From Escherichia coli (lineage in GTDB: Bacteria > Pseudomonadota > Gammaproteobacteria > Enterobacterales > Enterobacteriaceae): a stretch of DNA of 64,000 nucleotides. A model generated the notes under the pieces. The model was not told the origin of the DNA and did not search any database. It saw only the letters and a list, made by a program, of their open reading frames with translations. The DNA is taken from NCBI RefSeq assembly GCF_041886205.1, contig NZ_CP169029.1, one strand, 5' to 3'. This document shows, piece by piece, positions 1,565-23,331 of the stretch; positions within the stretch are counted from its first letter, which is position 1, and every line of letters begins with the position of its first letter. The position numbers and the translations under genes are program-made.

Positions 1565-2740
1565 TTAATGCAATCCAAAAACGTTCAACATGGTAGAAAG
1601 TTTGACGCCTGTTTCGCGCCACTCACCCAACGGTGACGACGCAGGCACAATCCCCGCTCCGGCAAACAGACGCACCTGATTTTCCCGCAGCTTCGCGCAG
1701 CGGATGGTCACCACCCATTCGCCGTTACCTTCGCTGTCACACCAACCCACGATGCCGCCAAACAGTTCGCGGTCGAACGGCTCCAGTTCAGCAATAATCT
1801 GGGTCGCGGCCTGATGCGGGAAACCGCTCAGCGCGGGGGTCGGATGCAGCAGACAGGCCAGAGTCAGTGCGTTTTCTTGCGAATTCGCTTTACCTTCAAA
1901 GGGAGTTGCGAGATGCCACAGCGTCGGCGTGGTAATCAATTGTGGAGAGGAGGGAACGTGTAACTCACTACTGCGTTCGCGCAGTACCTCTTTCATCGCC
2001 TGAGTCACCAGTTCATGTTCATGGCGATCTTTTTCTGACGCCAGCAGACGATTACCCGCTTCGCGATCGAGCACTTCATCCGGCTGACGACGCGCGGAAC
2101 CGGCTAACGGAATGGAGCTAAAACGCTCGCCGTCTTTACGTAGCAGCAGTTCCGGGCTGGCCCCCAGCAGCACTCCACCATCAGCCAGCGGGACATGGAA
2201 GTTGTAACTAACCGGGTTTTGCGCAATCAACCGTTCCAGCAATACGCCACTATCAATGGCGGCGTCAGTGGTGATATCAATCAACCGTGACAACACCACT
2301 TTGTCGACCTGCGGCGTGGCGGTAAGTGCGGCAGCGCGAGCAACCATCTGTTCAAACGTGGTTTTTTGCGGAATTGCCTGGCGTTCCACCACGTTCAGCG
2401 ACTGGCTGCGGGTGAAACGGCGGGCGGAAGCTTGTTTTTCCTGACGGGAGAACGACTGCCAGGATTCAGGAATATACAGCGACGAAGGCTGACGTGGATC
2501 GAAGGGAATCGCCCCGACCATCACCGGATTTTTGATACCCTGCGCTTTGGCATCGGCAAACAGCGCGGCGAGTTTTTGCTGGAAGGGACTGTCGGGCGAA
2601 TCCCCGTTCACAGCCGGTTCATCGAAGCGGGCGAAACATCCTGACGTCGTAAAACTGCGGTACGGCGACATAAAGAAAAAGCGATTGGGCGCAAGTGTTG
2701 CCATGGTCTGCTGTACTTCCTCAGCCAGTGACGTATCCAT
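1565..2740 (-). CDS. entC: isochorismate synthase EntC
   Basis: ORF translation [23 protein letters not shown]...; ATG at 2740 preceded by GGAGGA; the track ORF begins at an upstream GTG (2752). Confidence 0.93.
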
Positions 2741-2770
2741 ATCATCCTCCACAAAATGATAAAGGCTTTA

Positions 2771-2788
2771 ATAATGATTATCATTTAT
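2771..2788. promoter_or_regulatory. Fur box in the entC/fepB divergent promoter region
   Basis: ataatgattatcatttat, close to the GATAATGATAATCATTATC Fur consensus, in the 176 bp entC-fepB intergenic region. Confidence 0.8.
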
Positions 2789-2928
2789 ATTTTCGGTCGC
2801 TAACCTAAAAGCAAACGCGCACTATGTCAACTCTTGAGGTAACGCAATCTGCAACTCGGGGTTGCATCTGGTTGTGGTTACAATGAAAATGAGAAGCATT
2901 AACTTCATTAATAACAGGAAGCTGATTT

Positions 2929-3885
2929 GTGAGACTCGCCCCGCTCTACCGCAACGCCCTTCTATTAACAGGACTTTTGCTTTCAGGAATATCCGCAGTT
3001 CAGGCCGCCGACTGGCCGCGTCAGATTACTGACAGCCGTGGCACTCATACCCTGGAAAGCCAGCCGCAGCGTATTGTTTCCACCAGCGTCACCCTGACCG
3101 GCTCACTGCTGGCGATTGATGCTCCGGTGATCGCCAGCGGCGCGACCACGCCAAATAACCGCGTCGCGGATAACCAGGGCTTTTTACGCCAGTGGAGCAA
3201 GGTGGCGAAAGAACGCAAACTGCAACGGCTCTATATCGGCGAACCGAGCGCCGAAGCCGTTGCCGCGCAAATGCCGGATCTGATTTTAATTAGCGCAACC
3301 GGCGGGGATTCGGCGCTGGCACTGTATGATCAGCTTTCCACCATCGCCCCGACATTAATCATCAATTACGACGACAAAAGCTGGCAGGCGCTGTTAACGC
3401 AACTTGGCGAAATTACCGGGCATGAGAAACAAGCGGCAGAGCGGATTGCACAGTTTGATAAGCAACTGGCAGCGGCGAAAGAGCAAATCAAATTACCGCC
3501 GCAGCCGGTCACTGCCATTGTCTATACCGCCGCTGCACACAGTGCCAATCTCTGGACGCCGGAATCAGCACAAGGGCAGATGCTGGAACAACTCGGCTTT
3601 ACGCTGGCGAAGTTGCCCGCAGGGTTAAATGCCAGCCAAAGCCAGGGTAAACGCCATGACATCATTCAGCTTGGTGGGGAAAATCTGGCTGCGGGGTTAA
3701 ATGGCGAGTCACTATTCCTGTTCGCCGGTGATCAGAAAGATGCCGATGCTATTTATGCTAATCCGCTGCTCGCGCACCTGCCTGCAGTACAAAACAAGCA
3801 GGTTTATGCGCTGGGAACCGAGACGTTCCGACTGGATTACTACAGCGCCATGCAAGTGCTGGAACGACTTAAGGCGCTGTTTTAA
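2929..3885 (+). CDS. fepB: ferric enterobactin periplasmic binding protein FepB
   Basis: 318 aa [23 protein letters not shown] with signal peptide; GTG start. Confidence 0.92.
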
Positions 3886-3888
3886 GCA

Positions 3889-5139
3889 TTAACTGTCGGA
3901 CGCTGTCACCTGCGGCGGCGTCTGGCGAAAACGTCGCAACTCCACCAGCACCAGCAACAACAACACGCCGATAATCAACAAACCAAAACCGCTCGCGCTT
4001 GCAGAAGCAACCGGTGTCATCATCGCTCCCAGACCGCCTAACAGCGCCGCACCTATGGCATCGCCCGTCACGTTTTGCGCCGTCCACAAACCGTTAATCC
4101 GCCCTAACATCGCTTCCGGGGTTTGCGTTTGCAGCATTGTGTATTGCAGCAACGAGCTGACCGCACTCAACCAGCCGAACAGCGCCAGACAAACCACGCC
4201 TAAAATCCACATCGGCATCAGGCCAAACAGACCAATGGCGAGGAACGATCCCAGCGTGGAGAGCAGCATCAATAACCCTGGTCGCGCGCTATGTGCCAGC
4301 TTCCCGCTGGTTAACGCGCCAATAGCCGCACCGAGCGGGATCGCCGCATAGAGAAAACCAATCTGTGCCGCCGACATCTGCCAGTTGTCAGCCAGCGCCG
4401 GATACAGTACCCGCACCGCGCTCGCCATCGTCAATAAACCACCCAGCAACGCAATCCCTCCTACCAGCGGGCTGGCGAGCAGAAAACGAAATCCTGCCAG
4501 TAATGATTTCAACGGATGCTCGCGCGGCTGCGGTGGCGGTGGCAACGCCGGAAGGCTTAACAACGGTAGCAAGGTAATAAACGTGCCCGCCGCCGCCAGC
4601 CCGTAGTTCCAGGCTACGCCGCCGGTCGCCAGCAATAAACCGCCAATCATGGGCGAAATCACCGACCCCAGACGCACAGTCAACATGGTGATCGCCCCGG
4701 CCTGCATTAAGTTTTCACGCCCTACCAGTGCAGGTGTCGCCGCCAGTAGCGCCGTAACGCCAAGTGATGCGAAAAAACCATCCCATAAACCAAGTAAATA
4801 GATTGCCAGCAATGACGGTTCAGGCAGAAGTGCATTAAGGCACAGTCCAATGAAGCCAATGCCACAGGTGCCGCGCGCCAGCAAAATCACTTTTTTGCGT
4901 TCATAGCGATCCGCCAGCACACCGCCGACCATCAGGCCAACAAACATCGCGCCGCCGGTCAGCGTCACCGAAAGCCCCACCTGCCAGGTGGAATGTGTCA
5001 TCATCTGGATCTGCACTGGCACCGCGACGCCGAGCAAACCCAGAGAAACAATAGAGATGAAACGAGCGAGGAATACTGCGCGAAACGCCGGGTGCGTTTT
5101 CAACAGGCTGAGGTTAAGCAGCCAGGATTGTTTATTCAT
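3889..5139 (-). CDS. entS: enterobactin exporter EntS (MFS)
   Basis: 416 aa ORF, multi-pass hydrophobic, [27 protein letters not shown]. Confidence 0.92.
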
Positions 5140-5212
5140 TACAATGCCTTGCCATCAAATATTTTAAATACCTATTCTTAGGCTGCACATGCTAACATAT
5201 CCAAATAAGATC

Positions 5213-5237
5213 GATAACGATAATTAATTTCATTATC
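5213..5237. promoter_or_regulatory. Fur box(es) in the entS/fepD divergent promoter
   Basis: gataacgataattaatttcattatc, overlapping Fur-like hexamer repeats between divergent entS and fepD. Confidence 0.75.
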
Positions 5238-5249
5238 ATGGAAGTTCGT

Positions 5250-6254
5250 ATGTCTGGTTCTGTTGCCGTGACACGCGCCATTGCCGTGCCCGGATTGCTG
5301 TTATTACTGATTATCGCGACGGCATTAAGTCTGCTCATTGGGGCAAAATCACTCCCCGCTTCCGTAGTGCTGGAGGCGCTCTCCGGCACCTGCCAGAGCG
5401 CCGACTGCACCATCGTGCTTGACGCGCGACTGCCGCGCACCCTTGCCGGTTTACTGGCAGGCGGCGCGCTTGGGCTTGCCGGAGCGTTAATGCAAACCCT
5501 CACCCGAAACCCACTTGCCGACCCCGGCTTGCTTGGCGTGAACGCCGGAGCCAGCTTTGCCATTGTGCTGGGTGCGGCGCTGTTTGGTTACTCTTCCGCA
5601 CAGGAACAACTGGCGATGGCCTTCGCCGGGGCGCTGGTGGCCTCGTTGATTGTTGCCTTTACCGGCAGCCAGGGCGGCGGGCAGTTAAGTCCGGTGCGTT
5701 TAACCCTGGCGGGCGTGGCGCTGGCGGCGGTGCTGGAAGGGCTGACCAGCGGCATCGCCCTGCTTAATCCTGACGTCTACGATCAACTGCGTTTCTGGCA
5801 AGCCGGTTCGCTGGATATTCGCAATCTACATACCTTAACAGTGGTGCTGATCCCGGTGCTGATCGCCGGAGCAACTGCGCTATTACTGAGTCGCGCGCTG
5901 AACAGTTTGAGCCTCGGCAGTGACACCGCGACGGCGCTGGGCAGTCGCGTGGCGCGCACACAGTTGATTGGTCTGCTGGCGATTACCGTGCTTTGTGGTA
6001 GTGCGACGGCGGTAGTTGGCCCGATTGCCTTTATTGGCCTGATGATGCCGCATATGGCTCGCTGGCTGGTGGGTGCCGATCATCGCTGGTCGCTGCCCGT
6101 CACGCTACTCGCCACCCCTGCCCTGCTGCTGTTTGCCGATATCATCGGGCGGGTGATTGTGCCCGGCGAGTTGCGCGTTTCTGTGGTCAGTGCGTTTATT
6201 GGTGCACCGGTGCTGATTTTCCTCGTGCGACGTAAAACGCGAGGTGGTGCATGA
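5250..6254 (+). CDS. fepD: ferric enterobactin ABC permease FepD
   Basis: ORF MSGSVAVTRAIAVPGLLLLL...; chose the ATG at 5250 (334 aa) over the upstream ATG at 5238. Confidence 0.9.
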   Translation: MSGSVAVTRAIAVPGLLLLLIIATALSLLIGAKSLPASVVLEALSGTCQSADCTIVLDARLPRTLAGLLAGGALGLAGALMQTLTRNPLADPGLLGVNAGASFAIVLGAALFGYSSAQEQLAMAFAGALVASLIVAFTGSQGGGQLSPVRLTLAGVALAAVLEGLTSGIALLNPDVYDQLRFWQAGSLDIRNLHTLTVVLIPVLIAGATALLLSRALNSLSLGSDTATALGSRVARTQLIGLLAITVLCGSATAVVGPIAFIGLMMPHMARWLVGADHRWSLPVTLLATPALLLFADIIGRVIVPGELRVSVVSAFIGAPVLIFLVRRKTRGGA

Positions 6255-7243
6255 TTTACGTCTCTCGCCGATTACTCATCACCTGTTTGCTGCTGATTTC
6301 CGCCTGTGTGGTTGCAGGTATCTGGGGATTACGCAGCGGTGCCGTCACGCTGGAAACCTCGCAGGTATTCGCCGCGCTGATGGGCGATGCGCCGCGCAGT
6401 ATGACGATGGTGGTCACCGAATGGCGTTTACCACGCGTGCTGATGGCGCTGCTGATTGGCGCGGCGCTGGGCGTCAGCGGCGCGATTTTTCAGTCGCTGA
6501 TGCGTAACCCGCTCGGCAGCCCTGACGTAATGGGCTTTAACACCGGGGCGTGGAGCGGCGTGCTGGTGGCGATGGTGCTGTTTGGTCAGGATCTGACGGC
6601 TATCGCGCTGGCAGCAATGGCGGGCGGCATTGTCACCTCGCTGTTGGTCTGGCTGCTCGCCTGGCGTAACGGCATCGACACCTTTCGGTTGATTATTATC
6701 GGCATCGGCGTTCGCGCCATGCTGGTGGCCTTTAATACCTGGCTGTTGCTGAAAGCGTCTTTAGAAACGGCGCTAACAGCGGGTTTGTGGAATGCCGGAT
6801 CGCTCAACGGCCTGACGTGGGCAAAAACCTCGCCTTCCGCACCCATCATTATATTGATGCTCATTGCCGCCGCCTTGCTGGTACGCCGGATGCGCTTGCT
6901 GGAAATGGGCGATGATACCGCGTGTGCGCTGGGCGTCAGCGTCGAACGTTCGCGTCTGTTAATGATGCTGGTTGCAGTGGTGCTTACCGCTGCGGCAACA
7001 GCGCTTGCCGGGCCGATTTCCTTTATTGCTTTAGTCGCGCCGCACATTGCCCGACGCATTAGCGGCACCGCTCGCTGGGGGCTGACCCAGGCGGCGCTGT
7101 GCGGGGCGCTGTTACTGCTGGCGGCCGATCTCTGCGCCCAACAACTGTTTATGCCGTATCAACTTCCGGTTGGCGTCGTTACCGTCAGCCTCGGCGGTAT
7201 TTACCTTATCGTCTTGTTAATTCAGGAGTCTCGCAAAAAATGA
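6251..7243 (+). CDS. fepG: ferric enterobactin ABC permease FepG
   Basis: 330 aa ORF MIYVSRRLLITCLLLISACVVAG; start overlaps the fepD stop. Confidence 0.92.
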   Translation: MIYVSRRLLITCLLLISACVVAGIWGLRSGAVTLETSQVFAALMGDAPRSMTMVVTEWRLPRVLMALLIGAALGVSGAIFQSLMRNPLGSPDVMGFNTGAWSGVLVAMVLFGQDLTAIALAAMAGGIVTSLLVWLLAWRNGIDTFRLIIIGIGVRAMLVAFNTWLLLKASLETALTAGLWNAGSLNGLTWAKTSPSAPIIILMLIAAALLVRRMRLLEMGDDTACALGVSVERSRLLMMLVAVVLTAAATALAGPISFIALVAPHIARRISGTARWGLTQAALCGALLLLAADLCAQQLFMPYQLPVGVVTVSLGGIYLIVLLIQESRKK

Positions 7244-8055
7244 CCGAATCAGTAGCCCGTTTGCGCGGCGAACAGTTAACCCTCGGATATGGCAAATATA
7301 CCGTTGCGGAGAATCTGACTGTAGAAATACCTGATGGTCACTTCACAGCAATTATCGGGCCAAATGGCTGCGGTAAATCCACTTTACTGCGTACTTTAAG
7401 CCGCCTGATGACGCCTGCTCACGGGCATGTCTGGCTGGATGGCGAGCACATTCAACATTACGCCAGTAAAGAGGTCGCTCGCCGGATTGGTCTGTTGGCG
7501 CAAAATGCTACCACGCCGGGCGATATCACCGTGCAGGAACTGGTGGCGCGTGGGCGTTATCCGCATCAACCGCTGTTTACCCGCTGGCGCAAAGAGGATG
7601 AAGAAGCGGTAACGAAAGCGATGCAGGCCACGGGAATAACTCATCTGGCAGATCAAAGCGTGGATACCCTTTCCGGTGGGCAACGCCAGCGAGCGTGGAT
7701 CGCGATGGTGCTGGCCCAGGAAACGGCAATTATGCTGCTCGACGAACCCACGACCTGGCTGGATATCAGTCATCAGATTGATCTACTGGAACTGTTAAGC
7801 GAACTGAACCGCGAGAAAGGCTATACCCTGGCGGCTGTGTTGCACGATCTTAATCAGGCCTGTCGTTACGCCAGCCATTTGATTGCGTTGCGGGAAGGGA
7901 AAATTGTTGCTCAGGGAGCGCCGAAGGAAATTGTCACTGCCGAACTGATCGAGCGCATTTATGGTCTGCGCTGCATGATTATTGACGATCCGGTTGCCGG
8001 AACGCCGCTCGTGGTGCCGCTCGGACGAACGGCACCTTCAACCGCAAAGATTTAA
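7240..8055 (+). CDS. fepC: ferric enterobactin ABC ATPase FepC
   Basis: MTESVARLRGEQLTLGYGKY with Walker A GPNGCGKST; ATG at 7240 overlaps the fepG stop; the longer track ORF (7099) is an in-frame read-through of fepG. Confidence 0.92.
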   Translation: MTESVARLRGEQLTLGYGKYTVAENLTVEIPDGHFTAIIGPNGCGKSTLLRTLSRLMTPAHGHVWLDGEHIQHYASKEVARRIGLLAQNATTPGDITVQELVARGRYPHQPLFTRWRKEDEEAVTKAMQATGITHLADQSVDTLSGGQRQRAWIAMVLAQETAIMLLDEPTTWLDISHQIDLLELLSELNREKGYTLAAVLHDLNQACRYASHLIALREGKIVAQGAPKEIVTAELIERIYGLRCMIIDDPVAGTPLVVPLGRTAPSTAKI

Positions 8056-14701: not shown

Positions 14702-14753
14702 ACCATAACCCCATGTTTACTGTGCAATTTTTCATTGATTGCAGAAATATATT

Positions 14754-14787
14754 GATAATATTATTGATAACTATTTGCATTTGCAAT
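14754..14787. promoter_or_regulatory. tandem Fur boxes in the fes/fepA divergent promoter
   Basis: gataatattattgataactatttgcatttgcaat; repeated GATAAT-like hexamers in the 242 bp fes-fepA intergenic region. Confidence 0.8.
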
Positions 14788-14943
14788 AGCGTAATGGCGC
14801 GCCGTGGGAAGCGCGGACATTTATTAACCAACTGCACTGCGTGTCTTTCAGGATCAAAGGTTTTCGCGGTAGCGGGATGCGTCGTGTTGAGGACGACCAT
14901 GCCCGACAGTTGCAATTCGTGGCAAAAATGCAGGAATAAAACA

Positions 14944-17184
14944 ATGAACAAGAAGATTCATTCCCTGGCCTTGTTGGTCAATCTGGGGATTTATGGGGTA
15001 GCGCAGGCACAAGAGCCGACCGATACTCCTGTTTCACATGACGATACCATTGTCGTTACCGCCGCCGAGCAGAACTTACAGGCGCCTGGCGTTTCGACCA
15101 TCACCGCAGATGAAATCCGCAAAAACCCCGTTGCCCGCGATGTGTCGGAGATCATCCGTACCATGCCAGGCGTTAACCTGACCGGTAACTCCACCAGTGG
15201 TCAGCGTGGGAATAACCGACAGATTGATATTCGCGGTATGGGTCCGGAAAACACGCTGATTTTGATTGACGGCAAACCGGTCAGCAGCCGTAACTCGGTG
15301 CGTCAGGGCTGGCGTGGCGAGCGCGATACCCGTGGTGATACTTCCTGGGTGCCGCCTGAAATGATTGAACGTATTGAAGTTCTGCGTGGTCCGGCAGCAG
15401 CGCGTTATGGCAACGGCGCGGCGGGTGGCGTAGTTAACATCATTACCAAAAAAGGCAGCGGTGAGTGGCACGGTTCCTGGGACGCTTATTTCAATGCGCC
15501 AGAACATAAAGAGGAAGGTGCCACTAAACGCACCAACTTCAGCCTGACCGGTCCGCTGGGCGACGAATTCAGCTTCCGCTTGTATGGCAACCTCGACAAA
15601 ACCCAGGCTGACGCGTGGGATATCAACCAGGGCCATCAGTCCGCGCGTGCTGGAACGTATGCCACGACGTTACCAGCCGGGCGCGAAGGGGTGATCAACA
15701 AAGATATTAATGGTGTCATTCGTTGGGATTTCGCACCTATGCAGTCACTCGAACTGGAAGCGGGCTACAGCCGCCAAGGTAACCTGTATGCGGGCGATAC
15801 CCAGAACACCAATTCTGACGCTTACACTCGCTCGAAATATGGCGATGAAACCAACCGCCTGTATCGCCAGAACTACGCGCTGACCTGGAACGGTGGCTGG
15901 GATAACGGCGTGACCACCAGCAACTGGGTGCAGTACGAACACACCCGTAACTCGCGTATTCCGGAAGGTCTGGCAGGCGGTACCGAAGGGAAATTTAACG
16001 AAAAAGCGACACAGGATTTCGTCGATATCGATCTCGATGACGTGATGCTGCACAGCGAAGTTAACCTGCCGATTGATTTCCTCGTTAACCAGACGCTGAC
16101 GCTGGGTACGGAGTGGAATCAGCAGCGGATGAAGGACTTAAGTTCCAACACCCAGGCGCTGACCGGAACGAATACCGGTGGCGCTATTGATGGCGTGAGT
16201 GCCACCGACCGTAGCCCGTATTCAAAAGCAGAAATTTTCTCGCTGTTTGCCGAAAACAACATGGAGCTGACTGACAGCACCATCGTAACGCCGGGGCTGC
16301 GTTTCGATCATCACAGTATTGTCGGCAATAACTGGAGCCCGGCGCTCAACATATCGCAAGGTTTAGGCGATGACTTCACGCTGAAAATGGGCATTGCCCG
16401 CGCCTATAAAGCGCCGAGCCTGTACCAGACTAACCCGAACTACATTCTCTACAGTAAAGGTCAGGGCTGCTATGCCAGCGCGGGCGGCTGCTATCTGCAA
16501 GGTAACGATGACCTGAAAGCAGAAACCAGCATCAACAAAGAGATTGGTCTGGAGTTCAAGCGCGACGGCTGGCTGGCGGGCGTCACCTGGTTCCGTAACG
16601 ATTATCGCAATAAGATTGAAGCGGGCTATGTGGCTGTAGGGCAAAACGCAGTCGGCACCGATCTCTATCAGTGGGATAACGTGCCGAAAGCGGTGGTTGA
16701 AGGTCTGGAAGGATCGTTAAACGTACCGGTTAGCGAAACGGTGATGTGGACTAATAACATCACTTATATGCTGAAGAGTGAAAACAAAACCACGGGCGAC
16801 CGTTTGTCGATCATCCCGGAGTATACGTTGAACTCAACGCTGAGCTGGCAGGCACGGGAAGATTTGTCGATGCAAACGACCTTCACCTGGTACGGCAAGC
16901 AGCAGCCGAAGAAGTACAACTATAAAGGTCAGCCAGCAGTTGGCCCGGAAACCAAAGAAATCAGTCCGTACAGCATTGTTGGCCTGAGCGCGACCTGGGA
17001 TGTGACGAAGAACGTCAGTCTGATCGGCGGCGTGGACAACCTGTTCGACAAACGTTTGTGGCGTGCGGGTAATGCCCAGACCACGGGCGATTTGGCAGGA
17101 GCCAACTATATCGCGGGTGCCGGGGCGTATACCTATAACGAGCCGGGACGTACGTGGTACATGAGCGTTAATACTCACTTCTGA
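14944..17184 (+). CDS. fepA: TonB-dependent ferric enterobactin outer membrane receptor FepA
   Basis: MNKKIHSLALLVNLGIYGVAQAQE signal peptide, TonB-box-like DTIVVTA, C-terminal aromatic residue; 746 aa from the ATG at 14944 (the track ORF extends further upstream). Confidence 0.95.
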   Translation: MNKKIHSLALLVNLGIYGVAQAQEPTDTPVSHDDTIVVTAAEQNLQAPGVSTITADEIRKNPVARDVSEIIRTMPGVNLTGNSTSGQRGNNRQIDIRGMGPENTLILIDGKPVSSRNSVRQGWRGERDTRGDTSWVPPEMIERIEVLRGPAAARYGNGAAGGVVNIITKKGSGEWHGSWDAYFNAPEHKEEGATKRTNFSLTGPLGDEFSFRLYGNLDKTQADAWDINQGHQSARAGTYATTLPAGREGVINKDINGVIRWDFAPMQSLELEAGYSRQGNLYAGDTQNTNSDAYTRSKYGDETNRLYRQNYALTWNGGWDNGVTTSNWVQYEHTRNSRIPEGLAGGTEGKFNEKATQDFVDIDLDDVMLHSEVNLPIDFLVNQTLTLGTEWNQQRMKDLSSNTQALTGTNTGGAIDGVSATDRSPYSKAEIFSLFAENNMELTDSTIVTPGLRFDHHSIVGNNWSPALNISQGLGDDFTLKMGIARAYKAPSLYQTNPNYILYSKGQGCYASAGGCYLQGNDDLKAETSINKEIGLEFKRDGWLAGVTWFRNDYRNKIEAGYVAVGQNAVGTDLYQWDNVPKAVVEGLEGSLNVPVSETVMWTNNITYMLKSENKTTGDRLSIIPEYTLNSTLSWQAREDLSMQTTFTWYGKQQPKKYNYKGQPAVGPETKEISPYSIVGLSATWDVTKNVSLIGGVDNLFDKRLWRAGNAQTTGDLAGANYIAGAGAYTYNEPGRTWYMSVNTHF

Positions 17185-17979: not shown

Positions 17980-18089
17980 TTGACCACATCTGGTACGATT
18001 CGCCCGCAGCCATCACTGACCGCGGGCGAAAGTGTAAAGCAGGTGCCTTACCACCCTGACCTGACAACCGGATATGCGGGGATTACTCC

Positions 18090-19428
18090 CATAAGCGCTA
18101 ACTTAAGGGTTGAACCATCTGAAGAATGCGACGCCTCGGTGCCTCGTTAAGACGATGCCTCGCGTTCTTCAATTGCGTTTTGTAGGCTGTCAGGGATACT
18201 GTCCCACGAATGGCCACCTGTAAGCTCCAGATGACCATTTTTGTTATTCTCCACAACGAGTTAGTTCTTCTTTTCGGATCCGGCACTTCTGGGGGGGAAA
18301 TCCAGCGATGGCTGGATTATGTCGTCAATTAAAAATGCGGCGAGTAGATTAGCAAATATCCACGCTTTCGCGAGTTCAGGTTCCTTTGCACGCAAAGCAT
18401 CCAGGTGCAGCAAACTTTTGAGCCGCTTAAAAGCCAGTTCAATTTGCCATCGCAGACGGTAACAATCAGCCACTTGCTCTGCTGAATATTCATCTTCCGG
18501 TAATGATGTTAGCAATAGCACATGGCCCGCTGCTTCCAGCGTTTCCGCCTGAACTACTCGTCCTTTTCGACGATTCTCGCTGAGCAGTCGGGTTTTACTG
18601 ATTAATGCTTTTTCGGGAGGAAGTGATACGGCAATGAGACGTGCCGGAAAGGGAGCTCCGGCTTTTTTATTACCTGAATTGCCTATCATTACAGTGGTTT
18701 CACCGTTCTTACCGCAATCCAGCCCGCGCAGAAAACCCATCATGTCAAAGCGCATTCCTTCTGCAGTTAACCAGCGCAATCCTCGCCAGTGAACCCGGAC
18801 GATATAATCAGCTTCTCCAAAAGCAAGTGAGCGGATACATTCGGGACGCGAACCGAATCCCCGGTCAGCAATGCGTATCTCGTCTGCCGTTTGCGCAAAT
18901 CGGTCCAGCCGTTCAGCGTCTCTGCTGTCGGTTAGCTCAAAATCAGTGAACTGACAGGTATGAGGATCATATCCCATATGTAGTCGCCATTCAGCGCTGC
19001 CGCCCCCGGGCGCACTGATTGCTGTTCCATCGACAAGACGCAATCTCTTTCCGCTTGTACAACCCGTAACTGCGGCGCGTACAGCAAGTGTTTGTGCGGC
19101 AAGTATGCCAAACCAGTCGGCGGCATTCCGCAGCCGCTTCAGGAGAGCCACGTCAGATAATGTTGCAACGTCATGGAGCTGAGCCCATGCAGTGACTTCA
19201 CGTAATGACATCCCCCCGGGGCCGTAAGCCAGCCCCAGACGTAGCAGAGTTGCAGCATCACGAATTTCGCGGCGGCGGGTTAGAGCCCCGGCATTACGTG
19301 CCGAAGTATCCAGTTCTTCGGGCTTACCAATATGGGCCAGAATTGCTGACCAGTTATCGTGAGAGTAATTCATCGGCACGTTAAATCATATCAGGCGTAA
19401 TACCACAACCCTTAAGTTAGCGCTTATG
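18090..19428 (-). mobile_element. IS186 (IS4 family), copy 1, complete; transposase on the minus strand
   Basis: Terminal inverted repeats cataagcgctaacttaagggttg (18090-18112) and caacccttaagttagcgcttatg (19406-19428); flanked by direct repeats ggattactcc (18080-18089 and 19429-19438); boundaries accurate to about 1 bp. Confidence 0.92.
18261..19373 (-). CDS. insL: IS186 transposase
   Basis: ORF MNYSHDNWSAILAHIGKPEELDTSARNAG...; 370 aa from the internal Met, the track ORF starts two codons earlier at 19379. Confidence 0.93.
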   Translation of the reverse strand: MNYSHDNWSAILAHIGKPEELDTSARNAGALTRRREIRDAATLLRLGLAYGPGGMSLREVTAWAQLHDVATLSDVALLKRLRNAADWFGILAAQTLAVRAAVTGCTSGKRLRLVDGTAISAPGGGSAEWRLHMGYDPHTCQFTDFELTDSRDAERLDRFAQTADEIRIADRGFGSRPECIRSLAFGEADYIVRVHWRGLRWLTAEGMRFDMMGFLRGLDCGKNGETTVMIGNSGNKKAGAPFPARLIAVSLPPEKALISKTRLLSENRRKGRVVQAETLEAAGHVLLLTSLPEDEYSAEQVADCYRLRWQIELAFKRLKSLLHLDALRAKEPELAKAWIFANLLAAFLIDDIIQPSLDFPPRSAGSEKKN

Positions 19429-19850
19429 GGATTACTCCCCGCACAGCGGCTACTTCTTCGGTTCGTAAGCGAGAACAGCCTTAAACTCAATATTACGTTC
19501 CTTTACCGTAAACTCACACAACGAGTCTCCGACCAGAAGCGTAAATCCCAGCACCGTCAAACACAGCACTATGACTGCCACAAGGGCATATTTCGTCAGC
19601 ATGTTTATATTGCCTCCATGCGAAGAAGGGACTACCATCCGAGTTGTTGAGGTTCGGAGTGGCAGCCCCAGGATTGATAGAAATTTCTCCTGGGGCTTCA
19701 TCTTTCCAGACCTCAGAGTTAACCTGAAACCGGAAAGCTTCAGGCACCCGCCGTTATCTTACCCTTCCTTAGCAAAATAGCTGTTTATTTATACAGTGAG
19801 TCCTGTTTCGGACTTCTGTCAGCAAAACTCATCATTGCTCTTAAAACGAA
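19429..19850 (-). other. hok/sok-type type I toxin-antitoxin module, copy A (hokE coding region plus upstream mok/sok leader); its 3' UTR is separated by IS186 copy 1
   Basis: Contains the hokE ORF with GGAGG Shine-Dalgarno, an in-frame upstream ORF (19450-19701) and an overlapping out-of-frame ORF (19514-19747) as mok candidates; the 3' hairpin segment now lies at 18000-18089. Confidence 0.7.
19450..19602 (-). CDS. hokE: Hok-family membrane toxin HokE, copy A
   Basis: 50 aa [50 protein letters not shown]; single transmembrane helix typical of Hok/Gef; stop codon 21 bp from the IS186 end. Confidence 0.9.
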
Positions 19851-19941
19851 ATCGCCCGCAGCCATCACTGACCGCGGGCGAAAGTGTAAAGCAGGTGCCT
19901 TACCATCCTGACCTGACAACCGGATATGCGGGGATTGCTCC

Positions 19942-21280
19942 CATAAGCGCTAACTTAAGGGTTGTGGTATTACGCCTGATATGATTTAACGTGCCGATGA
20001 ATTACTCTCACGATAACTGGTCAGCAATTCTGGCCCATATTGGTAAGCCCGAAGAACTGGATACTTCGGCACGTAATGCCGGGGCTCTAACCCGCCGCCG
20101 CGAAATTCGTGATGCTGCAACTCTGCTACGTCTGGGGCTGGCTTACGGCCCCGGGGGGATGTCATTACGTGAAGTCACTGCATGGGCTCAGCTCCATGAC
20201 GTTGCAACATTATCTGACGTGGCTCTCCTGAAGCGGCTGCGGAATGCCGCCGACTGGTTTGGCATACTTGCCGCACAAACACTTGCTGTACGCGCCGCAG
20301 TTACGGGTTGTACAAGCGGAAAGAGATTGCGTCTTGTCGATGGAACAGCAATCAGTGCGCCCGGGGGCGGCAGCGCTGAATGGCGACTACATATGGGATA
20401 TGATCCTCATACCTGTCAGTTCACTGATTTTGAGCTAACCGACAGCAGAGACGCTGAACGGCTGGACCGATTTGCGCAAACGGCAGACGAGATACGCATT
20501 GCTGACCGGGGATTCGGTTCGCGTCCCGAATGTATCCGCTCACTTGCTTTTGGAGAAGCTGATTATATCGTCCGGGTTCACTGGCGAGGATTGCGCTGGT
20601 TAACTGCAGAAGGAATGCGCTTTGACATGATGGGTTTTCTGCGCGGGCTGGATTGCGGTAAGAACGGTGAAACCACTGTAATGATAGGCAATTCAGGTAA
20701 TAAAAAAGCCGGAGCTCCCTTTCCGGCACGTCTCATTGCCGTATCACTTCCTCCCGAAAAAGCATTAATCAGTAAAACCCGACTGCTCAGCGAGAATCGT
20801 CGAAAAGGACGAGTAGTTCAGGCGGAAACGCTGGAAGCAGCGGGCCATGTGCTATTGCTAACATCATTACCGGAAGATGAATATTCAGCAGAGCAAGTGG
20901 CTGATTGTTACCGTCTGCGATGGCAAATTGAACTGGCTTTTAAGCGGCTCAAAAGTTTGCTGCACCTGGATGCTTTGCGTGCAAAGGAACCTGAACTCGC
21001 GAAAGCGTGGATATTTGCTAATCTACTCGCCGCATTTTTAATTGACGACATAATCCAGCCATCGCTGGATTTCCCCCCCAGAAGTGCCGGATCCGAAAAG
21101 AAGAACTAACTCGTTGTGGAGAATAACAAAAATGGTCATCTGGAGCTTACAGGTGGCCATTCGTGGGACAGTATCCCTGACAGCCTACAAAACGCAATTG
21201 AAGAACGCGAGGCATCGTCTTAACGAGGCACCGAGGCGTCGCATTCTTCAGATGGTTCAACCCTTAAGTTAGCGCTTATG
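19942..21280 (+). mobile_element. IS186, copy 2, complete; inverted relative to copy 1
   Basis: Same 23 bp terminal inverted repeats at 19942-19964 and 21258-21280; flanked by direct repeats ggattgctcc (19932-19941 and 21281-21290); transposase protein identical to copy 1. Confidence 0.92.
19997..21109 (+). CDS. insL: IS186 transposase
   Basis: 370 aa, identical in protein sequence to the copy-1 transposase. Confidence 0.93.
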   Translation: MNYSHDNWSAILAHIGKPEELDTSARNAGALTRRREIRDAATLLRLGLAYGPGGMSLREVTAWAQLHDVATLSDVALLKRLRNAADWFGILAAQTLAVRAAVTGCTSGKRLRLVDGTAISAPGGGSAEWRLHMGYDPHTCQFTDFELTDSRDAERLDRFAQTADEIRIADRGFGSRPECIRSLAFGEADYIVRVHWRGLRWLTAEGMRFDMMGFLRGLDCGKNGETTVMIGNSGNKKAGAPFPARLIAVSLPPEKALISKTRLLSENRRKGRVVQAETLEAAGHVLLLTSLPEDEYSAEQVADCYRLRWQIELAFKRLKSLLHLDALRAKEPELAKAWIFANLLAAFLIDDIIQPSLDFPPRSAGSEKKN

Positions 21281-21301
21281 GGATTGCTCCCCGCACAACG
21301 G

Positions 21302-21454
21302 CTACTTCTTCGGTTCGTAAGCGAGAACAGCCTTAAACTCAATATTACGTTCCTTCACCGTAAACTCACACAGCGAGTCGCCGACCAGAAGCGTAAATCC
21401 CAGCACCGTTAAACACAGTACTATGACTGCCGCAAGGGCATATTTCGTCAGCAT
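21302..21454 (-). CDS. hokE: Hok-family toxin HokE, copy B (V8A variant)
   Basis: [50 protein letters not shown]; 6 nucleotide differences from copy A, one non-synonymous; IS186 copy 2 lies 21 bp after the stop and IS150 71 bp before the ATG. Confidence 0.88.
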
Positions 21455-21551
21455 GTTTATATTGCCTCCATGCGAAGAAGGGACTACCATCCAAATTGTT
21501 CAGGTTTGGGTAGGTAGCCCTAGGGTGTACTGACCCCAAAAAGTTGGACAG

Positions 21552-22403
21552 TTAAACACGAGGCATATAGGTCTGATTCCGATATTCAATTGGAGTCAGA
21601 CCTTTTAATTTCAGGCTAATTCTTCTGCTGTTGTAGTATTCAATATATTCCGTAACAGCATCCTTCAGTTCGCTTATATTACTGAACTCATCAAGATAAA
21701 AACACTCCGACTTTAAGGTTCCAAAGAAACACTCCACCACAGCATTATCCAGACAATTGCCTTTTCTGGACATGCTTTGTTTAATACCATGTTCTTTAAG
21801 GATATTTTGATATCTTCTCATACGATACTGCCATCCCTGGTCAGAGTGCAGAACAGGATGCTCGTGAGGATTAAGCTTTTTGAATGCCTGATCGAGCATA
21901 TTCTCAACCATGTTCATCACTGGTCTTTCCGAAAGGCTGTAAGAAATAACTTCATTGTTGAAGAGATCTATTACTGGAGACAAATACAGCTTGCGCCCAT
22001 TGACTGCAAATTCAGTAACATCGGTAACCCACTTCTCGTTTGGCCGCGTAGCCTTGAAATCTCTTTGGAGAACATTGGGGGCGGTTTGCCCTACCTCTCT
22101 TCTGTAAGAGCGGTATCGCTTGACCTTAATCGCTGCCTTAAGTGAGAGGGTTCCCATCAGGCGCTGAACAGCTTTATGGTTAATCTGTTTCCCTTCTCGA
22201 TGAAGAGACAGCGTTACCCTACGGTATCCGTATCGGCCTCTATTCTCATGATAAATCTCACCAATACGCTTTTTAACGCCCGCATACTTGTCAGGCTTGC
22301 TGAGAGCCTTTAGATGGTAATAAAACGTACTGCGCGGTATCTCCGCAGCCCTGAGAAGCTCATCAAGAGGATAAAACTGCCTTAGCTCGTTGAGTACTTT
22401 CAC
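21552..22403 (-). CDS. insK: IS150 OrfB (transposase catalytic part, DDE)
   Basis: 283 aa [32 protein letters not shown]... Confidence 0.92.
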
Positions 22404-22921
22404 TTTTTCGTGGGATGAGCTAAGGCTTTCAGCTTTTTTAGATACACAAGCCGCGTTTCAAGAAATCGAACTTGCCTTTCAAGATCCTCAATGCGTCGGT
22501 CTTTTGACAGCTCCAATGCTGATGCCGCTTTTTCTGGATCAACTGATATTGCAATGTTTCTTTTGGTGCCAATCTTGAGCGCGCGTAAACCAGCTTCTCC
22601 GCGATCTTCATAAACCTTCAGCCACCTGGCTACAGAACCACTACCAGCAAGCATAAAGTGAGCAGCAGCCTGATTAAGGGACATGTGCTGCTCGATCACA
22701 GCTTTCACGACCTTAATACGCAACTCTGGATCAGCACTAACGCCTTTAGGTTTGGGAATTAAACCTTTTTCTCCATGTTTTTCATAGAGGGCAACCCATG
22801 TCCTGACCTGGGTTCGGGGGACACCAAAACGTGCCGAGATGATCCTGTAACCATCATCAGTTGTGAAGTAGTGATTCACGACTTCAAGGCGCTTTTCAAA
22901 AGGGTATTTTGGCTTTGACAT
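22400..22921 (-). CDS. insJ: IS150 OrfA (helix-turn-helix DNA-binding part)
   Basis: 173 aa MSKPKYPFEKRLEVVNHYFTTDDGYRIISARFGVPRTQVRTW. Confidence 0.92.
   Translation of the reverse strand: MSKPKYPFEKRLEVVNHYFTTDDGYRIISARFGVPRTQVRTWVALYEKHGEKGLIPKPKGVSADPELRIKVVKAVIEQHMSLNQAAAHFMLAGSGSVARWLKVYEDRGEAGLRALKIGTKRNIAISVDPEKAASALELSKDRRIEDLERQVRFLETRLVYLKKLKALAHPTKK
22433..22439 (-). other. IS150 programmed -1 ribosomal frameshift heptamer A-AAA-AAG
   Basis: Minus-strand AAAAAAG lies in the orfA zero frame as CTA-AAA-AAG, 33 nt upstream of the orfA stop, where the orfB frame overlaps. Confidence 0.75.
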
Positions 22922-23331
22922 ATTAGGGGCTATTCCATTTCATCGTCCAACAAAATGGGTGCAGTACAGGGTTGATAGAAATATCTCCTGGGGCTTCATC
23001 TTTCCAGACCTCAGAGTAAACCTGAAACCGGAAAGCTTCAGGCACCCGCCGTTATCTTACCCTTCCTCAACAAAATAGCTGTTTATTTATACAGTAAATC
23101 CTGTTTCGGACTTCTCACTCCTCATTTAATCAACTGAAGCTGAACCCGTTTTTTCTGCATGCCTCAATCGTCAAAATTCTTCGCCGCCAGCCAGCTAAGA
23201 CGCAACTGGTCACATTGCAAAAGTAGCCAAATTACTTCAGTCACCATCACCAAAAAAAAGAAACATTCCAGAACTTCCGCATCTCGCCCAGCCGCTCCCA
23301 CTTCTATACTGAATGGAAAACGCCAACATAA

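Follow-up and report, generated by a model that had tools for sequence, protein, structure and literature searches.

What kind of structure is the 513-bp segment that lies between two inverted copies of IS186 beside the hokE toxin genes of Escherichia coli, does it change orientation, and, if so, by which route and with what effect? The question is raised by the window, i.e., the 64,000-nucleotide stretch of E. coli DNA analysed here, in which an initial annotation read positions 19429-19941 as a potentially invertible cassette, currently un-inverted, that homologous recombination could flip but that was unlikely to have moved as a unit. Comparison with complete E. coli genomes makes it highly likely that IS186 inserted twice, independently, into a tandem pair of hokE genes, and that the segment between the two copies is then reversed by ordinary homologous recombination, probably as a neutral polymorphism rather than as a switch. 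Inversion between IS copies is a known kind of event; for this locus, literature searches found no earlier description of a hokE/IS186 inversion.

Structure of the inverted IS186 pair

A repeat finder placed the arms of an inverted repeat in the window at 18075-19443 and 19927-21295, and trimming these arms to 23-bp terminal repeats set the ends of two elements of 1339 bp each: a left copy (IS186-L, 18090-19428, minus strand) and a right copy (IS186-R, 19942-21280, plus strand). The two are exact reverse complements with 0 mismatches (100% identity), a perfect repeat far beyond chance expectation, and both end in the 23-bp perfect terminal inverted repeat CATAAGCGCTAACTTAAGGGTTG and its complement. 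Each encodes a 372-aa transposase (18261-19379 on the minus strand and 19991-21109 on the plus strand, respectively) that matches PF01609 (DDE_Tnp_1) at 93.7 bits. Assignment to IS186 follows from an element length of ~1.34 kb with 23-bp terminal inverted repeats, a single DDE transposase ORF of ~370 aa, and, at both copies, a GGGG(N6/N7)CCCC target with a direct 10-bp duplication. Relatives carry the same element in RefSeq under the label "IS4-like element IS421 family transposase" (WP_001300563.1), which is the name given there to IS186.

The target-site duplications differ between the copies. GGATTACTCC stands on both sides of the left element (18080-18089 and 19429-19438), and GGATTGCTCC on both sides of the right element (19932-19941 and 21281-21290). 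Both the extent of the bracketed segment and the matching flanks at each element, as initially annotated, therefore hold to the base.

Upstream in the window, the ORF called for fepA (14713-17184) takes a mechanical start 77 codons ahead of the annotated 746-aa protein, giving 823 aa; this is an ORF-calling artefact.

The two hokE modules

The segment at 19429-19941 holds the hokE-A ORF, its leader/sok region and promoter, a 34-bp spacer, the 3' tail of hokE-B, and the inner copies of the two duplications. The hokE-A ORF (19450-19602, minus strand; 50 aa plus stop) matches PF01848 (HOK_GEF) at 34 bits and is annotated in relatives as HokE (WP_000956465.1), and its leader/sok region (19594-19749, minus strand) is intact, scoring 80.2 bits against Rfam RF01794 (gathering score 59). 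Within the segment, a simple scan for promoters gave no match to the sigma-70 consensus, and promoters there are thus putative positions only. The hokE-B ORF (21302-21454, minus strand; 50 aa plus stop; PF01848, 32.1 bits) has its leader interrupted by an IS150 (21526-22968, minus strand; 1443 bp with GGG on each side; annotated as IS150 in relatives), which separates the ORF from its promoter and splits the RF01794 match into parts of 63.7 and 23.7 bits. The first half of that match lies in the distal leader and promoter region (22972-23115, minus strand).

Three direct repeats relate the modules: 18000-18112 to 19852-19964 (98%), and 19406-19672 to 21258-21524 together with 19669-19817 to 22967-23115 (94-95%; 95% for the distal leader). 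These repeats define an underlying unit of ~500 bp, present twice in tandem, that reads on the minus strand in the order promoter, leader/sok, hok ORF, 3' tail. The initial annotation had the IS pair flanking the whole of hok module A. That description stands for the ORF and the leader, which are inside, but not for the 3' tail: the tail of hokE-A, with its fbi element and terminal hairpin (18000-18079, minus strand), lies outside, severed from its ORF by the left IS186, and the tail found inside (19852-19931, minus strand) is the orphan tail of hokE-B, which consists of an fbi element and a terminator hairpin (terminator-like hairpin at 19881-19852, minus strand). The two tails correspond to one another through the 98% repeat.

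Both copies retain a Hok/Gef ORF of ~50 aa and a conserved leader/sok region (intact in A, split by IS150 in B), but neither, in the state seen in the window, retains an intact hok mRNA with tac/fbi closure and a 3' terminal hairpin. With an IS186 between ORF and tail in each case, the two modules are both disrupted in structure. When the hokE-A mRNA was folded after in-silico removal of the IS, its 5' end was predicted to pair with a stretch in the 3' tail, which matches the tac/fbi closure described for hok mRNA (PMC9841398). The same fold predicts a 9-bp hairpin at GCGGGGAGUAAUCCCCGC, immediately past the stop codon, and a 14-bp terminal hairpin at the transcript end. The middle hairpin of this predicted fold is the position occupied by IS186 in hokE-A.

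Flipped isoforms in other genomes

The flipped isoform was built in silico without IS150 and searched against complete E. coli genomes. Because the IS copies and the hok paralogs cross-match, percent coverage is unusable for orientation, and genomes in the wrong orientation still reach 88-100% in several pieces; orientation was instead called from alignment in one piece and from direct inspection of fetched loci. The resulting census combines single-alignment matches with minus-strand records split in two pieces. The choice of query also matters: a 7-kb query that included IS150 returned just two double-IS genomes, both unflipped, since IS150 lowers the relevant genomes in the ranking and so hides the flipped ones, which queries without IS150 recover.

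An inverted IS186 pair occurs at this locus in about 50 complete E. coli genomes, 7 of which have the segment reversed and about 44 of which have it in the native orientation, i.e., that of the window. The arrangement of the window itself (left IS minus, right IS plus) is native in about 25 genomes and flipped in 4 (c1-17, O111:H8 SF26 102-1, SW070910, and 2017-02-2CC), each of which aligns over the full 4026 bases of the flipped query in one alignment. In another group of genomes, O104:H4 outbreak strains among them, the arrangement is the opposite one (left IS plus, right IS minus) and hokE-A is in native orientation; about 19 genomes are native and 3 flipped, the latter being SCPM-O-B-9427 (100.0%), VTB97432v (100.0%), and ZH177 (99.2%), with one alignment each to the corresponding in-silico flip. 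RefSeq annotation of the flipped genomes with the window's arrangement places hokE-A on the plus strand beside the right IS, with hokE-B still on the minus strand, and the annotation of SCPM-O-B-9427 likewise has hokE-A on the plus strand. The expectations that the segment can invert and that a flip re-orients hokE-A are thus borne out in seven other genomes and under two IS arrangements.

Comparison of close relatives isolates the event. Two isolates from the wastewater of one island, the flipped SW070910 and the native SW071620, agree at every base of 12,022 bp but for the 512 bp compared inside the IS pair, which in one strain are exactly the reverse complement of those in the other. The flanks of c1-17 (flipped) and QA-1986 83 (native) are 100% identical, and across 4026 bp no base separates SCPM-O-B-9427 from the O104:H4 locus flipped in silico. 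These close-relative comparisons imply at least three independent inversions, in three backgrounds.

At the five flipped loci that were inspected, the target-site duplications are swapped: the left IS is bordered by a duplication at its outer end and, at its inner end, by one in reverse complement (in one example, GGATTGCTCC ... GGAGCAATCC and then the hokE-B tail in reverse complement, GGAGCAATCC being the reverse complement of GGATTGCTCC), and the right IS shows the mirror pattern. The inspected flipped loci contain no new duplications, deletions, or junctions. Both orientations therefore exist in otherwise identical genomes, with junctions unchanged and duplications swapped across each IS, as an inversion polymorphism.

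The 2011 O104:H4 outbreak lineage (FDAARGOS_403 and C227-11, 2091-5281 in both) has its IS186 copies around hokE-A in the plus/minus arrangement; at this locus, the flip is the only difference between it and the O104:H4-like SCPM-O-B-9427.

Mechanism of the inversion

The IS186 pair forms 1339-bp perfect inverted repeats set 513 bp apart, and a reciprocal homologous recombination anywhere within the copies would reverse the segment, presumably in a RecA-dependent manner. Such an exchange would leave the sequences of the IS-flank junctions as before and would change only which duplications are paired across each IS. Recombination between inverted IS copies is known to invert the intervening segment without new junctions and to be missed by short reads (PMC5009759). 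The initial annotation had proposed homologous recombination between the two copies, and the swapped-duplication signature and the SW070910/SW071620 pair agree with it, as observed in strains other than the window's; flipping in the window's own strain would be expected by extrapolation from these. The excess of native over flipped genomes (about 44 to 7) points to flipping that is slow relative to clonal spread. For one IS pair at such close spacing, slow flipping is in keeping with the IS recombination rate reported for the whole genome, 4.5e-5 per generation (PMC5009759); extrapolation from this rate would give ~1e-6 to 1e-5 flips per generation in the window's strain.

A first alternative holds that the two insertions are static, that they effectively never recombine, and that assembly across the 1.34-kb repeats produced the flipped loci of public genomes artefactually. 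Short reads cannot resolve inversions of this kind (PMC5009759), an assembler can misorient a 513-bp segment between 1.34-kb repeats where long reads are sparse, the flipped calls rest on assemblies, and, of about 51 genomes classified, only 7 have the flip. However, the seven flipped genomes come from different laboratories and lineages and from two IS arrangements, and their loci are exact reverse complements with intact junctions. The orientation calls are also far from random, nearly all of the O104:H4-like group being native, which indicates that assemblers read a real signal, and recombination between close IS copies is well documented (PMC5009759). On balance, we consider a static structure unlikely.

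Flipping might also be the work of the IS186 transposase, acting on the two inner IS ends or through some other aberrant transposition, rather than of host homologous recombination. In its favor, the transposase ORF is intact in both copies, the four IS ends are near one another, and inside-out rearrangements are known for composite elements of the IS4 family. Transposition from the inside ends would, however, take a new target and make new junctions, whereas at the flipped loci the segment is reversed exactly, every IS-flank junction reads as before, no duplication has been added, and no sequence has been lost. Exact flips without new junctions favor a conservative homologous exchange over transposition, and a transposase-driven flip seems to us quite improbable.

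Homologous exchange between the IS186 copies has its nearest parallels in the inversions described for the E. coli long-term evolution experiment (PMC4173774) and in a further study (PMC5009759), where long identical inverted IS copies likewise undergo conservative exchange without new junctions, invisible to short reads. The window differs from the evolution experiment in that its copies derive from double use of a paralogous hot spot and in that both states are found in natural isolates. The inversions of that experiment are reportedly much larger than 513 bp. The same geometry, a unique segment between long inverted repeats, also characterizes the central region of the composite transposons Tn5 and Tn10 and plastid genomes with large inverted repeats, all of which occur as two interconvertible flip-flop isomers. 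In contrast to these, the structure in the window has not transposed as a unit, and its isomers are not equimolar but skewed to the ancestral order (about 44 to 7).

Switch or neutral polymorphism

Inversion of a promoter-bearing segment raises a further possibility, that of a programmed phase-variation switch in which the flip turns the hokE-A toxin, the sok RNA, or the IS186 transposase on or off. The segment does carry a toxin/antitoxin module with its promoter, and hokE-A is transcribed toward the transposase start of the neighboring IS. Yet no recombinase or invertase gene is annotated within about 4 kb in relatives, where the neighbors are fes, fepA, entD, ybdK, ybdJ, ybdF, nfsB, and ybdG; neither an adjacent invertase or tyrosine recombinase gene nor short inverted sites are present, the repeats being whole IS elements rather than short recombinase sites. 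The arms are identical, so the same 1339 bp adjoin each side of the segment in both orientations and local expression should not change, and hokE-A is without its 3' tail in both states. Additionally, only about 1% of genomes have the arrangement, and it has at least two origins, opposite to each other in IS orientation; this speaks for accident rather than design. A programmed switch is, in our assessment, very improbable.

The comparison with known switches leads the same way. The fimS element (FimB/FimE) and the Hin/Gin systems share with the window a small promoter-bearing segment found in two orientations; they are served by a dedicated recombinase acting on repeats of roughly 10-30 bp. 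The window, by contrast, has no dedicated recombinase, its repeats measure 1339 bp, and no orientation-dependent output is predicted. Whichever way the segment lies, hokE-A runs into the transposase-start end of an identical IS186 and away from any 3' tail, so the flip should not act as a switch. It is probably neutral and without phenotype, an expectation based on this symmetry argument. Contexts more than 1.3 kb away do change with the flip, such as read-through coming from hokE-B or running toward entD.

Origin of the locus

Recombination between the IS186 copies accounts for the two orientations; how the pair was assembled can be read from genomes that lack it. An IS-free reconstruction of the locus was made by removing both IS186 copies and IS150, each with one copy of its duplication, and the resulting 1957 bp were compared with 5,426 complete E. 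coli genomes. ET201 matches this reconstruction at 99.9% in a single alignment and a longer version over 3957 bp with 4 mismatches, also in one alignment. It holds both empty GGGGATTRCTCCCC sites in the expected flanking context, with GGGGATTACTCCCC at the position of the left insertion and GGGGATTGCTCCCC at that of the right. IAI1, O157, and many others likewise match the reconstruction in a single alignment and have two annotated hokE genes. At least 80% of the reconstruction is covered in ~4,395 of the 5,426 genomes, with two hokE genes annotated in many of those listed, and a tandem duplication of hokE has been reported in NRG857c (PMC7232551).

From these genome comparisons, the tandem hokE pair is ancestral and widespread, and the window's three IS elements are all simple insertions. 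Native order is the IS-free ancestral order. As initially proposed, then, the window holds the un-inverted state: each IS has matching 10-bp duplications, and the reconstruction is collinear with ET201, IAI1, O157, and others.

The history of the locus most likely ran as follows. The entD-ybdK interval first held two tandem hokE type I toxin modules, ~94-98% alike, the mRNA of each predicted to form a GCGGGG-N6-CCCCGC hairpin right after the hok stop codon that fits the IS186 target. IS186 then entered both paralogous sites independently, in opposite orientations and with a 10-bp duplication each, and each insertion severed the hok ORF from the fbi element and terminator tail of its own mRNA. 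IS150 split the hokE-B leader, probably later.

Three simple insertions at an ancestral tandem locus leave no place for movement of IS186-hokE-IS186 as a composite transposon, and the doubt initially expressed about such movement was well placed, given the non-identical outer flanks, a separate duplication at each IS, and a 503-bp interior that empty-site genomes carry as native chromosome. The idea that such a composite brought a hok/sok addiction module into the site as a unit has in its favor only that two inverted IS copies around a short cargo form the Tn5/Tn10 layout, and is extremely improbable: GGATTACTCC and GGATTGCTCC stand at the two outer flanks with no single duplication around the whole, deletion of the two IS copies gives the native tandem locus of ET201 and thousands of other genomes, and, among the matches listed, every IS186-hokE junction lies at the entD-ybdK locus and plasmids align only with the IS186 part of the query.

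A recent tandem duplication of 1852 bp was also considered as the source of the two IS copies and was rejected on three grounds: the inverted orientation of the IS copies, their full identity against a divergence of 5-6% between the hok copies, and the wide occurrence of tandem loci free of IS.

Related loci and the lineage of the window

Strain MB53 carries the locus of the window without IS150 (12,026 bp, 99.91%). Since MB53 is the nearest double-IS186 relative and yet has no IS150, the order of the IS150 and IS186 events is not simple in the lineage of the window. IS150 occupies the same position in the hokE-B leader of QA-1986 83, VE-T9, AR_0019, and others, and strain B has IS150 remnants between hokE and ybdK. 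Compared with the elements of the window, the two IS186 copies of MB53 (4591-5929 and 6443-7781) share two substitutions, G>T at position 26 and C>A at position 804, and the annotation gives each copy an internal stop; a systematic error of sequencing may account for the common differences, as may gene conversion from one inverted copy to the other.

VE-T9 and wlxctx60 have a backbone 99.9% identical to that of the window, only hokE-B, and one IS186 each (plus and minus orientation, respectively), located between the tail of module A (ATTACT) and hokE-B (ATTGCT). The regions homologous to window positions 18080-21290 (2591-3929 in VE-T9, 2591-4706 in wlxctx60) have GGATTACTCC on the left and GGATTGCTCC on the right, and on account of these mismatched duplications both loci look like 1852-bp deletion derivatives of a double-IS locus similar to that of the window. 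The deletion may have occurred by exchange in direct repeats including the IS ends, by annealing of the tandem hok repeats after a break left by IS excision, or by recombination between directly oriented IS copies. No directly oriented IS186 pair turned up in the ~51 double-IS genomes classified, which fits a rapid deletion of such pairs while inverted pairs persist.

Some strains have three copies of hokE, or a third IS186 on the right-hand side of hokE-B (2017-02-2CC, from 5791 onward; EC12; GPEC1042). The locus can thus grow past two modules and two IS copies.

The hok hairpin as an IS186 target

IS186 targets 5'-GGGG(N6/N7)CCCC-3' in either orientation, with 54 such sites per K-12 genome (PMC5009759), and its insertion in either orientation is also documented at the lon promoter (PMC3045373). 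Across the 64-kb window there is no unoccupied GGGG-N6-CCCC site, and the two hokE hairpins are therefore its only two IS186 targets. In other genomes, IS186 abuts the hokE stop codon in minus orientation in ~1,730 cases, K-12 and B included, and in plus orientation in ~839, ~560 of which are apparently at another Hok/Gef paralog. IS186 also abuts the stop codons of a Hok/Gef gene that is ~89% identical (apparently these ~560 genomes) and of hokC/mokC. These data suggest that the G4-N6-C4 hairpin past the stop codon is an IS186 hot spot common to the hok family.

The hokE locus of K-12 and B resembles that of the window in the element, the post-stop target hairpin, and the 10-bp duplication; IS186 sits there at the homologous site, in minus orientation, with GGATTACTCC on both sides. 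It differs in having one hokE, one IS186, and nothing invertible, whereas in the window both tandem hokE genes have been hit, in opposite orientations. More generally, chromosomal hok loci of K-12 are reported to be inactivated by insertion elements, with IS186 next to hokE and hokC (Pedersen and Gerdes 1999, as cited in PMC7232551).

It is conceivable that the hok 3' hairpin of hokE, hokC, and another Hok/Gef gene is a non-accidental landing site, where IS186 disarms the toxin, sets its transposase downstream of a hok promoter, and, through the flip, alternates the IS186 copy that receives read-through or shifts antisense read-through between the hok copies. We regard this as a speculation with a very slim chance of being correct; if it were true, the flip would give a low-frequency heritable difference in transposase or toxin expression.

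Implications

For comparative genomics and assembly, where the main practical relevance of the locus lies, the 513-bp segment is a feature whose orientation differs between near-identical genomes and to which short reads are blind. Comparative and outbreak genomics, for instance of O104:H4-like strains, should accordingly take its orientation neither as a phylogenetic marker nor as an assembly error. No new mechanism is involved, and no phenotype is expected. The broader point concerns how a highly specific transposon target can build a substrate for recombination: the G4-N6-C4 target belongs to the hok mRNA itself, so that it is duplicated whenever hok is, and where both copies are hit in opposite orientations, an inverted pair results that leads to inversion in natural isolates, near-identical strains included.
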